Source: Chiloscyllium plagiosum (lineage: Eukaryota). From it: a DNA stretch of 64,000 nucleotides. The translations under genes were made by a program, and so were the position numbers. Below, piece after piece: positions 35,256 to 53,639 of the stretch. The notes beneath the pieces are model-generated. The model made no database searches. It was not told the DNA's origin and saw nothing but the letters and a program-made list of their open reading frames with translations. Every line of letters begins with the position of its first letter. Within the stretch, counting starts at the first letter, position 1. The stretch spans positions 5,154,199 to 5,218,198 of the forward strand of contig NC_057751.1 of assembly GCF_004010195.1 (NCBI RefSeq). The letters run 5' to 3'.

Positions 35256-36389
35256 ACAAAAAGAACAGATGGAGTTCACTCCCCACTCTAAACCTGCCTT
35301 GGCCTATCCCCTGAGTTGATCTTATCAGTCCATTTCCCTGTCTCGATGGTGCACTCCTTTGTGACTGAGAGAAAAAGGACGCAATTCATCCTCAAGGAGA
35401 AATCTTCAACTGACGGTCAGTTTCGACAGGGCTGTGTGGGTGGGTGACCCTGACCCTGAAGGGAACTCAGAGGTTGCAGAATAACTTTGCTGGGTGTTAC
35501 TACTGAATAGACCAACTCCAGTCGAAAACAGGACAAGGGGTCAAGAGAGAGTGCTGCTGTTCGAAGGCACACTTGACGGCTCTGTCAGCTCAAGAGGAGA
35601 CAAAGCAAGCAGCTGTTCATGGAGATGGCTGTGCTCTCAATAAGAATGCCATGTCACTCTGTGTTAATGAGAACCAGAGACTTTGAAACCTCTCCTGAAC
35701 TTTGCCATTGAACAATGGAACCAAGTCGTTCAGACACATCCCAGACCGTCTCTGAGCACTGCAAAGTCATTCTCCAGGACAAAGTGGGATGTCAGATACT
35801 TTCACACAACTTCTGCTGTTCTTATTCCCTCATGGGACATGGGGGTCACTGGCTGGGCCCAGCATTTCCTGCCTGTCCCTCGTTGCCACCTTGAGAAGGT
35901 GGGCGTGAGCTGCCTCCTTGGAGCTGCTGCAGTCTGTGTGTTGTAAGTTAATCCACAATTCCCTGAGGGAGGGAATTCCAGGATTTTGACTGTCACACTC
36001 CTGTTTTCCTGGCGATTCAGCTCTGAACAGATACTGCAAACGCCTTACAGTTTGTAACGGCTAGGGTTCACATCTTGGCTTTCTGACAGATCCACCTTTC
36101 TCCTTTTGTCAATCAGACGAGCATGAATTTCAGAAACAAATCACTTCCAAACTCTGGCCCTTTTTCACTGGGTGGGGAATGAGCTGCTCACACAATGCAC
36201 TCAATCACCTCTTCATTCATGTGAAAGACTGCACCATCTCAAACTGAATGCAACCACTTCTGCCTTATTTTTCACACCAGTACGATGAGCTGTTCTGATG
36301 TGCCTTTTTACTCAGCATTCCAAGGGACACGGCTCTTGCTGGTAACAGTCAGTTCCATCATGTAATGTCAGTCCCACAACCTGACAATG

Positions 36390-38890
36390 CCAGGTACAGA
36401 GGGGATGGAACCCAGTACGGAGGGGATCATTCCCAGTACAGAGGGGATGGAACCCAGTACGAAGGGGATCATTCCCAGTACGGAGGGGATCATTCCCAGT
36501 AGGGGGGGATGGAACCCAGTACGGGGGGATCATTCCCAGTACAGAGGGGATGTAACCCAGTACGGAGGGGATCATTCCCAGTACAGAGGGGATGTAACCC
36601 AGTACGGAGGGGATGGAACCGAGTACGGAGGGGATCATTCCCAGTACAGGGGGGATCATTCCCAGTACGGAGGGGATGGAACCCAGTACGGAGGGGATCA
36701 TTCCCAGTATGGAGGGGATGGAACCCAGTACGGAGGGGATCATTCCCAGTACGGGGGGGATCATTCCCAGTACAGAGGGGATGGAATCCAGTACAGAGAG
36801 GATCATTCCCAGTACGGGGGGGATGGACCCAGTAGGGAGGAGATCATTCCTAGTACAGAGGGGATGTAACCCAGTATGGAGGGGATCATTCCCAGTACGG
36901 AGGGATGGAACCCAGTACGGAGGGGATCATTCCCAATACGGAGGGGATGGAACCCAGTATGGAGGGGATCATTCCCAGTACGGAGGGGATCATTCCCAGT
37001 ACGGAGGGATGGAACCCAGTACGGAGGGGATCATTCCCAGTACGGAGGGGAACATTCCCAGTACGGAGGGGATGGAACCCAGTACGGAGGGGATCATTCC
37101 CAGTACGGAGGGGATCATTCCCAGTACGGAGGGATGGAACCCAGTACGGAGGGGATCATTCCCAGTACGGGGGGGATCATTCCCAGTACGGAGGGATGGA
37201 ACCCAGTACGGAGGGGATCATTCCCAGTACGGAGGGGAACATTCCCAGTACGGAGGGGATGGAACCCAGTACGGAGGGGATCATTCCCAGTACGGAGGGG
37301 ATCATTCCCAGTACGGAGGGATGGAACCCAGTACGGAGGGGATCATTCCCAGTACGGAGGGATGGAACCCAGTACGGAGGGGATGGAACCCAGTACGGAG
37401 GGATGGAACCCAGTACGGAGGGGATCATTCCCAGTACGGGGGGGATCATTCCCAGTACGGAGGGATGGAACCCAGTACGGAGGGGATCATTCCCAGTACG
37501 GAGGGGATGGAACCCAGTACGGGGGGGATGGAACCCAGTACGGAGGGAATCATTCCCAGTACGGTGGGGATCATTCCTAGTACAGAGGGGATCATTCCCA
37601 GTACGGGGGGGATGGAACCTAGTACGGAGGAGATCATTCCCAGTACAGAGGGGATGTAACCCAGTAGGGAGGGGATCATTCCCAGTACAGAGGGGATGGA
37701 ACCCAATACGGAGGAGATCATTCCCAGTACAGAGGGGATGGAACCCAGTAGGGAGGGGAGCATTCCCAGTACAGAGGGGATGTAACCCAGTACAGAGGGG
37801 ATGTAACCCAGTACAGAGGGGATGGAACCCAGTACGGAGGGGATGGAACCCAGTACAGAGGGGATGGAACCCAGTACGGAGGGGATGGAACCCAGTATGG
37901 AGGGGATGGAACCCAGTACAGAGGGGATCATTCCCAGTACGGGGGGGATGGAACCCAGTACGGAGGAGATCATTCCCAGTAGGGAGGGGATGGAACCCAG
38001 TAGGGAGGGATCATTCCCAGTAGGGAGGGGATCATTCCCAGTAGGGAGGGGATCATTCCCAGTAGGGAGGGGATGTAACCCAGTACAGAGGGGATGTAAC
38101 CCAGTACAGAGGGGATGGAACCCAGTACGGAGGGGATAATCCCCAGTATGGAGGGGATGGAACCCAATACAGAGGGGATCTATCCCTGTATGGAGGAGAT
38201 CATTCCCAGTACGGAGGGATGGAACCCAGTACGGAGGAGATCATTCCCAGTACAGAGGATGGAACCCAGTATGGAGGGGATAATCCCCAGTACGGAGGGG
38301 ATGGAACCCAGTACAGAGGGGATCTATTCCTGTACGGAGGGGATCTATCCCCTGACAGAGGAAAATCAATCCCAGTTCAGAGGAGATCGATCCCAGTACG
38401 GAGGGGATCATTCCCAGTACAGAGGGGATCATTCCCAGTACAGAGGGGATCATTCCCAGTACAGAGGAAAATCGATCCCAGTACGGAGGAGATCGATCCC
38501 AGTACGGAAGAGATTGATCCCAGTACGGAGGGGATCATTCCCAATACGGACGAGATCAATCCCAGTACGGAGGAGATTGATCCCAGTACGGAGGAGATTG
38601 ATCCCAGTACGGACGAGATCGATCCCAGTACGGAGGGGATCATTCTCTGTATAGAGGGGATCATTCCCAGTACAGAAGGGATCTATCCCCTTACAGAGGA
38701 AAATCAATCCCAGTATGGAGGGGATCATTCCCAGTACGGAGGGGATCATTCCCAGTACGGAGGGGATTGATCCCAGTACGGAGGGGATCGATCCCAGTAC
38801 GGAGGGGATCGATCCCAGTACGGAGGGGATCGATCCCCTTAGAGGAAAATCAATCCCAGTCAGGGGAGATGTAGGAAATGTGACCCCAGT
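36390..38890. repeat. G-rich minisatellite, ~21-bp unit CCCAGTACGGAGGGGAT(CATT/GGAA), ~2.5 kb
   Basis: Over 100 tandem units with interspersed variant types; lies in ARHGAP25 intron 1. Confidence 0.97.
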
Positions 38891-39130: not shown

Positions 39131-39330
39131 GTCGATCAAAGAGTGTGATGCCAGGTGAACACTGTGCTGTGTCACACAGATCATCATCACCCAACACATT
39201 GGAACGTCCCGTCAAGTCAGGCTGGTTGAAGAAACGGAGGTCACTTGTGAAACAATGGCACCAACGCTGGTTTGTCCTTCGGGGTGTCTATCTATGTTAC
39301 CACAAAGAAGAGGAAGACGGAAAGCCACAG
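39131..39330 (+). CDS. ARHGAP25: ARHGAP25 exon 2 (PH domain start)
   Basis: ctag|RSKSVMPGEH...PNTLERPVKSGWLKKRRSLVKQWHQRWFVLRGVYLCYHKEEEDGKPQ|gtacat. Confidence 0.93.
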
Positions 39331-39458
39331 GTACATCTGATCGGGAGCAGTTAGTCACTGTGCTGCTCCTCACGAGAGAACTGTCCGCTTTTTGGCAGCA
39401 GTATAATCACAAGAAACTGAAACAGGAATAGTTGGAAATACTCAGGAGGTCAGGCAAC

Positions 39459-42064: not shown

Positions 42065-42225
42065 ACCTTTCCCCAGGGTCAGTGTCATTGAGTGGGTGGG
42101 GAAGCATCGCCTTGGCACTGCTTTGGTCTTTTGTTAATCAATCAGAGGGATATTGTGACTGCAGGCTCTTGTTATTTATACACAGGGACTGGGTGATGCA
42201 GTCACTAAATCTGTGTCTTTTCCAG

Positions 42226-42313
42226 GGCTACATTGTGCTCCAGGACTGCAAGGTGAATGAACTACCAGCTAACCCGGATGATCCAGGAAAATTCCTCTTT
42301 GAAATCACTCCAG
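42226..42313 (+). CDS. ARHGAP25: ARHGAP25 exon 3 (PH domain)
   Basis: ccag|GYIVLQDCKVNELPANPDDPGKFLFEITP|gtattg. Confidence 0.92.
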
Positions 42314-43026
42314 GTATTGTCTCTCTCTGTGTCAGAAACCCCTGTGTACATATTTCCCCCCATCCTGCCAATTCACTCTCCCAGCTGGGAGCTCTGGCCA
42401 TCTCGGAGGAACATTCCTGGGCAGGGACAGGAAGGTGAGGTGAGGGGGAGGCAGGCAGGTCTGAGCATCCCCCATTGTGGCCCATTGTTTGGACATGGAG
42501 CAGACCCACAAAGGGGTCTCTTCACAAGCCATCAGCCCCCACCCAATCCCTGTCAGTGATAGATGGGTTCAGCATCAGTCCCAAGGGGGCCTTGCCCCTC
42601 TCAGTGCTACCTGGCAGCCCACATTGCCACTGCATCTTCATCATGTAATGACACCCCGACGTAGCTAGCCACAGCCAAGTGATCTTACAGGGAACGGGAT
42701 AAGATATTGTGAAGCAAAATACGGGTAAGGCGAGGATTGAGCATGGGTAAATCGACCGTTTGGTTAATTTAATCACCCGCTCATCATTTGTTGTGCAGAG
42801 TGAAAATTTATTTTATTAACACCCAGTTTACTCTCCACCCTTAACTCAGTGACTAAAATACAATAACTTTATTACTAAAATAACACTTAAGATTAAACTA
42901 AATTATTTCTAAAACCTATTTAAAATTCTAAACTTAAAAATTAAATAAAAATTAAAAATAATTTCAAATGTAATTAAATTATGTCTAACGGAGGATCTAT
43001 AAAAGTCCTAAGAGTCCATAAAAATT

Positions 43027-43167
43027 ATTGAGCCCTCCACTACCACCTGATGAAGGAGCATCGCTCCGAAAGATAGTGCTTCCAATTAAACCTGTTGGAC
43101 TATAACCTGGTGTTGTTGTGTGATTTGTAACTTTGTCCACCCCAGTCCAACACCGGCACCTCCGAAT
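43027..43167 (+). mobile_element. Penelope-like insertion with hammerhead core, nested in R2 ORF end
   Basis: Flanked by CATAAAAATT (43017-43026, 43168-43177); CAC-CTGATGA-A-GGAGC-ATC-GCTCC-GAAA-GATA-GTG at 43044-43078. Confidence 0.8.
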
Positions 43168-43900
43168 CATAAAAATTCTCAACAGTTGAAGGGTCAAAGA
43201 CAACACAAGGTTTGTGATGGTCCGTGCAAATGTTTTACACTTTTCAGCCCCGAGGGCTTTCATTGTTTTTCATTGTTTTTCTCATACCATTTCCCCCAGG
43301 CTCCCATCACAAAACCATAAAAGGATACTATCGATCCCTTGGTAAAAGTTACCATTTCTTCCTCCAGATGTTTATACTTAGTAGTCTTCTCTTCCCATGC
43401 CTGTTTGAGTGAGTTTATTTAAGTATCTGATCTAATCCTCACATCTGTCACAATTACTTGCTGTTCCTTTTTAAAAATCAAATCCACAATCCATAGTTTT
43501 CCTTCTTTGCCTTTTATCCGCGGCTCTATATACGTTGTCCATCCCTTTGCTTTGACATACTTTGTTATTTCCACTGCTATCCTGTTATGTCTTTTAATCC
43601 TCATATTTTTAACAAAAGGGCACCAGCCTGAAATATGTGCCACATTTTCTGTGATACATTACCATCTCCTGCAAGGTTTAATATTAAAAGGCCTTCCGTA
43701 GTTCAATGACGCTCTGGTTGGGAATAAAATTGAGTTGATTACTTTAGATGTCTTCATATATTGGATTTCTTGTGACCAATTATTGGAAATCCAGTCTTTT
43801 TAAAGTGATGGATGCCTGCCCCTTGACATGGCAGAGCCATCCATTTTTGCATTTCAATATCTCTCCAGTCGTTAGAATGCTTACTGCTGTATTCCTCAAG

Positions 43901-44236
43901 GAGAAAGTGAGGACTGCAGATGCTGGGGATCAGAGCTGAAAATGTGTGTTGCTGGAAAAGCGCAGCAGGTCAGGCAGCATCCAAGGAACAGGAGAATCGA
44001 CGTTTTGGGCATGAGCCCTTCTTCAGGCCCTCACCTTATCACCTTCACCTTAACCTCCTTCCACCTATCGCATTTCCCAACGCCTCTCCCCCAAGTCCCT
44101 CCTCCCTACCTTTTATCTTAGCCTGCTGGACACACTTTCCTCATTCCTGAAGAAGGGCTCATGCCCTAAACGTCGATTCTCCTGTTCCTTGGATGCTGCC
44201 TGACCTGCTGCGCTTTTCCAGCAACACATTTTCCAG
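43901..44236. mobile_element. Penelope-like insertion with inverted terminal arms, nested in R2; 17-bp TSD
   Basis: CTGCTGTATTCCTCAAG at 43884-43900 and 44237-44253; ~43935-44027 is the reverse complement of ~44146-44237. Confidence 0.85.
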
Positions 44237-46539
44237 CTGCTGTATTCCTCAAGCCCATTATTCATACTTTCATTACCCTCTATTTCATCCAATTTGCTCA
44301 TTAATTTGTGGATTCCAGATTTCTTTTAAATTATTTAGTTTCCTTAAGTTTTGCATTTTAGATATAATACTAGTTCCCTCGAAAAAAAATGAGGCATGTA
44401 AAATTTCATCCGAGGAATTGTACAACATCTCGAGATTTCTTAAAATAGCAATTGGAATAAAGAGAGATAATTTAGTTCGCCCTAACCCACCATCACGATT
44501 TTTAGTATATAATCATCCTTCCGTGATGGATTGTGGGAGATGTAATATTTCCTTAACTGTGTTTTTAATTAAAGTGTCTAATTTATTGAAATAATTTTGG
44601 GATGCTTCGGATAAAATAAGGTAATAATATAACCTGGGGATAAAATACGACTTTACAATTTCAAATTTCTGTACTGGTTTTAAAAAGGCTTTCTTAAGAT
44701 TGCCTGTCCAATCTCCAAATTGCAACTCCCAATGGGATTGGCTAATCCCAATCCATGGGTCAATTTTAGCCCCTAAATATTTATCGATTTTACCCGGCTC
44801 TATAAACTGTATTAGTCCATCGTTAAGTTTCCAGTATGGCCTATTATTATAAATAAACGTTTTGTTTTTATAGACAAAATAAAATCCTTTTGTCTTTTTG
44901 ACATTCACCTCCAAACCAGTGTTCCTACAAAATCTTTCTAAGAGTTTTAAATTATAAGCCATCCCTTCATATGACTGACTAGCCAATGCAATGTCGTCTG
45001 CAAATGCCAGGGAGGCAGAGTGGTGACTTGAACCATCTGGTCCTAAAAACAATCCCTTTTTACTCTCTTCTATCGTACTAATTAGAGGGTCCATTATAAT
45101 ATTAAAAAGTATTGGTGACAGTGAGTCACCCTGTTTAACCCCTTTTTAAAATTTTTATTGGATTAGTTTTACAATTAAAACCTTCAACCACTGTTGAATT
45201 ATAAACTTATAATTAATTTAATAACTTCGGGAGGGAGCTGTACTCTCTTCAGGGCACTAGTTATTAATTTATGTCCCACTGTATCAAAAGCTTTCGCCAG
45301 ATCAACAAAAACTATCACTAAATCATTTTTGTTTCTCTTGGCCCCATGAATGGTATTTTCGAGAATCTGAATATTCTCCTCGCAGCCCGATACCCCAGTG
45401 AAAAACCGCTTTTGTCGTTTACTTAGTTCTATTGCCTTACGCAATCTCTAAGCCATTATTTTAGTGAAGAGTCTTAATAAAATTGGCCCTATTGTGATAG
45501 GTTGCCAATTGTTAATATCCTTTAGCCCTTCTTCATCATTAACCTTAGGGATTAATACAGTCCTACTAACTTTCATTATTTCTGGGATCTTAGCCATTTT
45601 AAGCCAAATAGAAAATAATCTGGGTATAGTATTGTTATCTTTATTAAATATTCCAACCATATCCCTGAGTGACATCTGATCTGACCCTGCCGCAGTTTTC
45701 ACGTCCATCGCCTTAATGGCCTGATTGACGTCTTCCACCGAGACATGACCGATCAGCATATCACCCAGAGTACCGTCCCCATTACCCCTGTATTTGGCTA
45801 ACCCTCCTAAATTATTCTTATCGTTGGGAGTTGATTATCTTTCGTCAAAGTATTGTTCCAATTGTTCTTTGCTCAGGGGGCAAACACATTTATTTGGGGC
45901 CCCCATTAGCATCCTTGCTAAATATTGCCTCTTAGTTTTATATAACATCAGAGTTTGTTTAAACACCCCTTTCTTCTTACTATATCCTTTCTTGGCGTTA
46001 TTGGGCACTGTCTTAGCTTTCTGCCTATTACTATCTGAGCCACTATTTCATTTATTACTTTTATGTTTCTTTTTACCTTCCTTTTTATTCTCCTTTCTAA
46101 TATTTAACTTCTTAATTATCTCTTCCATAACAATATCACCTCCACTCATTCTTACCCGTTTACTCTTACTAATCTTGTCCTCAATAATGTCCAATAATTC
46201 ATTTAATGATTTATTACTTAATTCTACCTTCCCTATATCCTCACTTCTTCCTTATTACTTATCTACTTCCGTTCTTATCCCTTCAATATCCTTATCTATA
46301 ACCCCCTCACCAAAATCCTTATCTTCGTTAATCTCTTTATCATTATTGAGGACCACTTCCTGATTACCATTATTACCCTGTCTGATGCTGAGACCAGGGC
46401 TCCCAGCTCTGAACTTCCTTCCCTGACCCTCTTCCATCTCTCCCCCTCTGCTCTCAGGCCTGACTGAAATCTGAAACTGAAGCACGACAGGCAGAGAAGA
46501 GACACCCAGGTCCTGGGCGTGCCTCAATGGTTTCACAAA

Positions 46540-47252: not shown

Positions 47253-47752
47253 NNNNNNNNNNNNNNNNNNNNNNNNNNNNNNNNNNNNNNNNNNNNNNNN
47301 NNNNNNNNNNNNNNNNNNNNNNNNNNNNNNNNNNNNNNNNNNNNNNNNNNNNNNNNNNNNNNNNNNNNNNNNNNNNNNNNNNNNNNNNNNNNNNNNNNNN
47401 NNNNNNNNNNNNNNNNNNNNNNNNNNNNNNNNNNNNNNNNNNNNNNNNNNNNNNNNNNNNNNNNNNNNNNNNNNNNNNNNNNNNNNNNNNNNNNNNNNNN
47501 NNNNNNNNNNNNNNNNNNNNNNNNNNNNNNNNNNNNNNNNNNNNNNNNNNNNNNNNNNNNNNNNNNNNNNNNNNNNNNNNNNNNNNNNNNNNNNNNNNNN
47601 NNNNNNNNNNNNNNNNNNNNNNNNNNNNNNNNNNNNNNNNNNNNNNNNNNNNNNNNNNNNNNNNNNNNNNNNNNNNNNNNNNNNNNNNNNNNNNNNNNNN
47701 NNNNNNNNNNNNNNNNNNNNNNNNNNNNNNNNNNNNNNNNNNNNNNNNNNNN
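47253..47752. other. Assembly gap
   Basis: 500 N. Confidence 1.
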
Positions 47753-52990: not shown

Positions 52991-53256
52991 TTATTAATGT
53001 GAACAAACTTCCACATCATTCCCATTGAATCCAAGTCATTTGATCCAGTAATTCACTTGAGGTTGAAGTGTGGGAAACATGGGGTTGAATTCCTTCCCCT
53101 AACAGTGAGGGTTTTGTCAATGGGAGGAAGAGCTCCTGAACTTCTGAGTTGTTTGGTAGGTCATGCCACCTGTGGGGTTATTTGTGGAGTGAATTCCTGT
53201 GAATCCTTCCTTTTCTATTCAGGATTTGAGATACTGCAACTTGCTTTCTCTTGCAG

Positions 53257-53389
53257 GAACACTGATGTACACACCGTAGCCTCTCTCTTTAAGCTGTACC
53301 TGAGAGAGCTCCCCGAACCAGTTGTCCCCTGGTCTCAGTATGAAGACTTCCTGGCTTGCAGCCAGCTCATGAACAGCGATGAGGAGCAG
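53257..53389 (+). CDS. ARHGAP25: ARHGAP25 exon 6 (RhoGAP)
   Basis: gcag|[44 protein letters not shown]|gtatgt. Confidence 0.95.
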
Positions 53390-53639
53390 GTATGTTCTGG
53401 ACCTGTGTGTTCCACAGTGCTCTGTGTGCTGGTGAAACAGAACCCAATCTCTCAGTCTCACTGCCACTGTGTTCAGACAGACTACAGCAGGAGTCCCAGC
53501 GTGTTTCAGAGTGATGACCAGGTTCCGATTCTCAGAATGAAGAGGAACTGAGCTCGGATGGGTTCAGGTCCTGGAAAGACACAGGGTTTGGTGTTGTTCA
53601 CCGTCCCTCACCACAGCTGACGGAGAGAGTAAAACAGTA

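Follow-up and report, generated by a model that had tools for sequence, protein, structure and literature searches.

The 64-kb stretch of shark DNA analysed here (the window) carries a decayed copy of an R2 retrotransposon, which lies antisense within an intron of a plus-strand gene whose PH and RhoGAP exons flank the insertion (Table 1). The preliminary description had named this gene ARHGAP25; its PH and RhoGAP domains were recovered, and ARHGAP25 itself is the probable identity from the best PDB match of the PH exon, KIAA0053, which we take to be a synonym, with ARHGAP22 and ARHGAP24 as alternatives. Comparison of the RhoGAP exon with PDB picked no single paralogue, and an ESM Atlas look-up of a host exon gave no useful name. 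Elsewhere in the window, a 21-bp tandem repeat of 117 copies (36385-38837) produces long open frames, and a stop-free plus-strand stretch (702-1118) resembles a membrane-enzyme exon (NWWVRGILTLAMISFFFLIIYLGPMVLMMI) of a neighbouring gene, presumably CDP-diacylglycerol synthase-like.

Table 1 The R2 copy and the surrounding host exons, with positions in the window
Feature	Position	Strand	Basis
Host PH-domain exon (stop-free stretch containing exon)	39175..39339	+	Pfam PH E 6e-9; PDB KIAA0053 PH E 2e-14
Host PH exon just upstream of insertion, start approximate; splice donor GT at 42314	42190..42313	+	Read from sequence/translation; alone without Pfam match
Decayed R2 (lineage A) copy	42640..46386	-	64-73% identity to ten relatives (blastn, local alignment)
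3' UTR remnant without conserved terminal ~60 nt	42640..43007	-	Alignment to relatives
Second nested high-copy repeat, 141 bp	43027..43167		10-nt target duplication
Zinc knuckle and restriction-like endonuclease (aa 1038-1287 of P0001), frameshifted	43168..43903	-	tblastn 51-72%
Nested SINE-like high-copy repeat, 336 bp	43901..44236		17-nt target duplication; very high depth
RT second half, thumb, linker (aa 741-1024 of P0001)	44294..45145	-	tblastn 64%; RVT_1 E 2e-15
Linker and RT first half (aa 383-719 of P0001), in-frame stops	45202..46215	-	tblastn 54% identity, 3 stops; RVT_1 E 2e-6
Host RhoGAP exon downstream of insertion (approximate)	53216..53419	+	Pfam RhoGAP E 8e-12

The broken minus-strand reading frame contains the RT, zinc-knuckle and endonuclease motifs of the preliminary description in the order given there; its two nested insertions are marked by their target duplications, and its end in IFMDS and a stop at 43008 holds once the second insertion is skipped. 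A single ORF in which the RT is followed by a zinc knuckle and a restriction-like endonuclease is a feature of R2 lineage A. The proposed R2 identity was supported by Pfam and PDB matches: the longest stop-free piece (44516-45145) matched Pfam RVT_1 and was much closer to vertebrate R2 structures than to LINE-1 (E ~1e-46 versus 1e-7), the second half of the RT matched R2Tg (E 2e-46), a turtle R2 (5e-43) and the 1114-aa RT-like protein 8gh6 (4e-16), presumably R2Bm, and the knuckle-endonuclease piece matched PDB R2 proteins (E 7e-12).

Both ends of the copy are missing. Relative to ten related copies, its 5' end is truncated at ~46386, close to the 46380 first suggested, and ~1.4 kb including the ribozyme, zinc fingers and Myb domain is gone. 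Aligned to four relatives, it falls 51-64 nt short of the conserved 3' end of the family. The flank at 42600-42660 does lack 28S sequence, as had been noted, but it is not the 3' junction of the element for which it had been taken; as the last ~60 nt are absent, the true 3' junction is lost and the missing 28S flank is uninformative on targeting. The 64-kb window contains no 28S core words and gave no match in an Rfam scan, in line with the reported absence of rDNA. A search of the rest of the window for the 5' part of the element found repeat matches only, a 500-nt N gap (47253-47752) being unreadable.

The window copy is among the oldest of its family: it is common to two other organisms, 5'-truncated, 3'-trimmed and interrupted by two later insertions. 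Contigs of these organisms (B and C) span its 5' junction at ~94-95% identity, and contigs of organism B also span its 3' edge, which places the insertion before these lineages separated. The stop density of the copy is among the highest in the family (5 of 712 aligned codons), and with at most 76% DNA identity to any copy compared from the shark genome (G000) it represents a distinct subfamily. Organism B also has a 3.1-kb contig that shares ~85% identity with the window copy, more than any G000 paralogue found. Depth figures were discarded, as the nested repeats dominated them.

The shark R2 family

At least 103 distinct loci of the family were identified in G000, 56 of them on 32 of contigs C1-C51; this count is a lower bound from four DNA searches, each with its best 40 or fewer candidates, and it is probe-biased, with duplicates and tandem arrays counted in. 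Full-length copies measure ~4.6-4.7 kb and encode three N-terminal zinc fingers and a Myb domain, dispersed and 28S-flanked copies alike. In an RT tree of 69 rows, the window copy, its closest database protein P0001 (68% identity over the window's RT piece) and five G000 copies form a seven-row clade (SH-aLRT 100), which is joined next by catshark P0002 (99) and then by the clade of PlaMe R2 (P0021) at a support of only 80; the neighbours of the window copy are three-finger proteins including PlaMe R2, in a tree whose rows include no labelled NeSL, Utopia, HERO, R4 or R2NS references. NeSL, Utopia, HERO and R4 elements target SL RNA, U2 snRNA or other 28S sites. The Myb domain and the use of the canonical R2 site argue against membership in any of these groups.

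The family is the published 28S-flanked R2-1_CPu family, and the window holds a decayed, probably off-target example of this known type of R2. P0001 matches the R2-1_CPu ORF across the 400 residues that Table S2 of PMC13188248 shows, and the same table gives R2-1_CPu with 28S flanks on both sides. Published shark R2s comprise a PCR fragment from 2016 and full elements from 2026 (PMC13188248), so that the family, put forward as a candidate non-site-specific lineage, was largely catalogued already by the 2026 paper. The bamboo-shark lineage-A elements R2-1_CPu and R2-1_CPl described there resemble the family in their 5' start, length (~4.65-4.75 kb) and C-terminus (IFMDS). The available portion of PMC13188248 gives one 28S-associated copy per species, whereas the family analysed here is also dispersed. 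The matched passages of that paper on outside, non-rDNA, off-target or non-specific R2 mention no dispersed shark copies, and a description of a dispersed shark R2 population was not found in the accessible literature, a scope that excludes subscription journals, Repbase and Dfam.

The best PDB matches of the window copy are lineage-A R2 proteins of birds and turtles (R2Tg/TaGu, ZoAl, PlaMe), which have three zinc fingers and a Myb domain in common with the shark family. Unlike theirs, the first zinc finger of the shark family ends in Cys (H-x3-C), as read in P0001 (aa 146-166), L050, L051, L064, L046, L052 and L039; the other lineage-A R2 proteins examined have H-x3-4-H at this place, with His in eight of nine other pattern-matching proteins and P0034 ambiguous. 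This ZF3 change was considered as a cause of leaky targeting and kept as a lead only, since in the accessible part of PMC11204384 a ZF3 deletion keeps fidelity.

Twenty aligned 5' ends conserve HDV-like P1, P2 and P3 pairings together with the core motifs (paired cells: P1 77/81, P2 100/111, P3 47/54; fold z -2.7). The 5' end is therefore predicted to form an HDV-like ribozyme with P1 starting at the element's first G. Cleavage by it is predicted at the first base of the element, in contrast to the Drosophila R2 ribozyme, which according to available passages of PMC13580325 cuts ~28 nt upstream in the rRNA.

One locus outside rDNA, L034 (G000:C95377:12097-15203, minus strand), has a stop-free ORF of 785 aa that runs off the contig. 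Its 3' side shows a 10-nt 28S match followed by a short-period satellite. In three trees it groups as sister to the window copy, though at only ~74% identity, and it has no close relative in the assembly.

Junctions at 28S and dispersed sites

All 3' ends in 181 loci were compiled and like flanks merged, which left 47 non-redundant, complete, non-tandem junctions; eight 3'-truncated copies (the window copy included; L060 moved by hand), one end that a locus edge cuts off, and the head-to-tail tandem junctions of eight unplaced contigs were set aside. Nine of the 47 run from the canonical nick into at least 260 nt of 28S, and one more, L063, joins 28S irregularly, giving 10/47 in 28S. In another four, a 28S tail of 48-76 nt gives way to unrelated DNA; the remaining 33 are dispersed, so that 37/47 are outside long 28S. 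The assembly contains four exact empty 28S targets, its rDNA being collapsed or under-represented, and for this reason the proportions are not insertion or off-target rates. At the 5' side, five junctions join upstream 28S, while at least 25 dispersed full-length copies begin at the element's first bases without 28S upstream.

These counts bear on both readings offered in the preliminary description. A rare single off-target event does not agree with 33 of 47 complete junctions outside rDNA, which do bear out a dispersed multi-copy family. The reading of a non-site-specific lineage is not supported, given the ten 3' junctions at the 28S site and the five 5' junctions with 28S, the three zinc fingers and Myb domain that are kept, the match to published 28S-flanked shark R2s, and the dispersed copies forming no clade (see below).

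Several loci in 28S have individual features. L063 (G000:C99392) shows the 3' end followed by 28S from ~130 nt upstream of the target and then an intact empty target, together with a short inverted 3'-end fragment at an upstream target. A shifted target, as in fish R2s with moved junctions, was considered for the family from this locus and rejected, L063 being a single irregular locus and the other copies using the canonical nick. R2 copies within 28S were also seen on large contigs (L064, L137, L162, L163 and L174 on C26, C1, C8, C47 and C16), where the surrounding 28S consists at least partly of short decayed fragments away from an array; L064 sits in a fragment with ~570 nt of 28S upstream and 743 nt downstream. 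Tandem head-to-tail junctions occur on G000 contigs C94519 (L105, L106, L130), C76844, C85578 (L132), C76542, C79548, C67705, C37983 and C2289, in some of which a short repeat of the 5' start separates the units, and the L132 array ends in downstream 28S. They may have arisen by template jumping or serial insertion.

At 21 of the 33 dispersed junctions the flank matches downstream 28S by TAG or longer (best of eight offsets; 20/33 under a fixed rule), against a chance TAG match of 6.6% at random flank positions (best of seven offsets, one fewer than in the junction test), and at 12/33 the match is below 3 nt. Empty sites rebuilt from repeat paralogues show that the first downstream bases pre-existed in the target at L041, L046, L050, L062, L074 and L160; one rebuilt site reads TTAAGG/TGAG. 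At L053, the 28S-like TAGCCAAA is missing from the uninterrupted repeat paralogues. In the 25 dispersed full-length 5' flanks, 28S likeness is confined to the last 12 nt (p ~0.001), and at -40..-12 none was significant (p 0.10 and 0.43). A distal 28S-like motif had appeared significant at -40..-8 in 17 flanks; it was lost at -40..-12 in 25 and was dropped. An Rfam scan of 11 loci gave no match, though a 76-nt 28S tail plain in the sequence also went undetected by it.

It is conceivable that the dispersed copies were not placed by the R2 protein, but that host LINEs (CR1, L2, L1) or break repair captured R2 RNA, or that rDNA fragments moved as DNA. Several 28S-flanked copies do sit in short chromosomal 28S fragments such as that of L064, eight copies including the window copy are 3'-truncated, and segmental duplicates exist. 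Such placement is nevertheless improbable and fits a minority of loci only: family 3' junctions have no poly(A) tails, none of 12 two-ended copies has a target duplication above 6 nt (those of the window's SINE-like inserts measure 10 and 17 nt), and most junctions lie exactly at the element's 3' end and continue with TA or TAG. Movement as DNA would, moreover, bring 28S on both sides, whereas 25 full-length copies start at the first bases without it.

Phylogeny and origin of the dispersed copies

In a tree of the last 1.1 kb (54 rows; L177 was dropped for short cover), at least six starred clades contain 28S-flanked or 28S-tailed copies, mostly beside dispersed ones. AU tests rejected both a topology holding the 34 dispersed rows together against 13 (p-AU 5e-48) and one holding the 10 rDNA rows together (p-AU 4e-54). 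The clade of the window copy (22 rows, support 100/99) has no long-28S member and includes two short-tail copies and one with a 10-nt match; a second starred clade of six rows consists of dispersed copies throughout. Twelve close dispersed pairs gave dN/dS values of 0.28-0.63, two pairs with 28S-flanked members 0.18-0.19, two short-contig copies without flanks 0.10, and comparisons between subfamilies 0.07-0.14 (8/14 pairs unsaturated). Selection among dispersed copies is therefore relaxed, yet not neutral. Shared 3' flanks were considered as a sign of autonomous dispersed sources; in the three groups compared (the C8 group, L032/L040 and L058/L065) the 5' flank is shared as well, so these are duplications and not 3' transductions.

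One explanation of this pattern is an intrinsically relaxed shark R2 protein, which would still use 28S but nick many TA/TAG sites, with some subfamilies, including that of the window copy, propagated partly or wholly from dispersed sources. It would account for the 37 of 47 complete junctions outside long 28S, the many full-length dispersed copies (at least 25), the two starred clades without long-28S members, the H-x3-C first finger of P0001 and of rDNA and dispersed copies where eight of nine others have His, and the lack of 28S likeness beyond -12, where ZF1-Myb bind according to accessible passages of PMC11204384. We consider it unlikely: members with 28S flanks or tails are spread over at least six separate starred clades, the three groups compared contain no 3' transduction, ZF3 deletion left the target fidelity of avian R2 unreduced in the part of PMC11204384 available, and, on the available parts of PMC11371274 and PMC13580325, slow loss of copies outside rDNA can raise dispersed counts where the off-target rate is 0.1-1%.

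The explanation we prefer, with a probability of roughly 0.68, is that the window holds a dead lineage-A R2 copy and that the dispersed copies arose when the R2 protein inserted copies of rDNA sources off target. In its favour are the family members at the exact 28S site, the common first base of dispersed full-length copies, the TAG bias of dispersed 3' junctions, the mingling of both classes in the tree, and the relaxed selection in dispersed copies. Accessible portions of PMC11371274 report that avian lineage-A proteins require pairing of the 3' tail with the primer, and that avian R2 inserts off target in human cells at ~0.1-1%, at sites with little target likeness besides primer-complementary bases after the nick. 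Head-to-tail tandems arise there as well, and the junctions of the shark family fit this description. From this fit and the 48-76-nt tails we infer rDNA sources, recurrent off-target insertion and long persistence. Such tails suggest that read-through 28S transcripts served as templates; where the 5' side has been lost, insertion into a small fragment of 28S would leave the same picture.

As a mechanism, an rDNA copy would be co-transcribed with 28S, the predicted HDV-like ribozyme would cleave at the first G of the element, and the RNA would retain a 3' tail of downstream 28S (UAGCC...). Occasionally, a nick or break at a genomic site that pairs 2-5 bases with this tail would be used for insertion; alternatively, priming further out in the tail would lead to 28S sequence being copied. 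An off-target copy would have no rDNA promoter and would decay, while escaping the turnover that purges rDNA copies, such that successive subfamilies would leave fossils.

Several observations stand against insertion from rDNA sources: the 22-row clade of the window copy lacks a long-28S member and all rows of the six-row clade are dispersed, the match at 12 of 33 dispersed junctions is shorter than 3 nt, and L034 keeps its stop-free ORF outside rDNA. The dN/dS values well below 1 in dispersed pairs allow some replication after dispersal; source divergence and CpG effects would also lower dN/dS. For the window copy itself, whose own junction is lost, the route of insertion is taken from its relatives.

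Relation to known R2 systems

Many copies at unrelated sites are also found in R2NS-1_SMed and R2NS-1_CSi (PMC5035012) and, in the accessible part of PMC7650587, in the cockroach BLAG elements. These are, on the same sources, separate families without 28S specificity, whereas the shark family interleaves 28S and dispersed copies; among R2NS-type features, neither an absence of 28S-site copies nor a lineage of dispersed copies on their own was found. R2-1_CGi was renamed from R2NS after one copy was found beside 28S. Further parallels are the decayed avian R2 remnants, many of which have non-rRNA flanks (PMC5035012), and the extra-rDNA R2 and R1 of Drosophila, dead copies derived from rDNA sources (PMC2718515, available passages). 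Drosophila R2 is described there as 'seldom' outside its locus and such copies as often incomplete; the dispersed shark copies, by contrast, include at least 25 of full length and many subfamilies. From avian and turtle R2 the shark family further differs in that its off-target copies are natural germline insertions.

What the genome contains is probably a natural record of R2 insertion off target, and not a lineage whose target has been lost. The single window copy is of little importance alone; more deserving of attention is the genome-wide pattern of a family anchored in 28S with many dispersed fossils. The family's dozens of germline off-target junctions are a natural case reproducing the signature that R2-based gene insertion shows at ~0.1-1%, and R2 engineering gains a vertebrate lineage-A protein open to direct comparison of stringency with avian ones. 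Extinct R2 subfamilies, normally erased by rDNA turnover, are preserved in the dispersed copies. Judged from sequence, it is possible, if doubtful, that the shark lineage is a natural transitional form, standing between site-specific and generalist R2, which would have kept its 28S home while a loosened protein and a boundary-cutting ribozyme placed a large share of germline insertions at TAG-offering nicks that pair with the 28S tail. If so, the genome would be a layered archive of the erosion of target specificity in a vertebrate.
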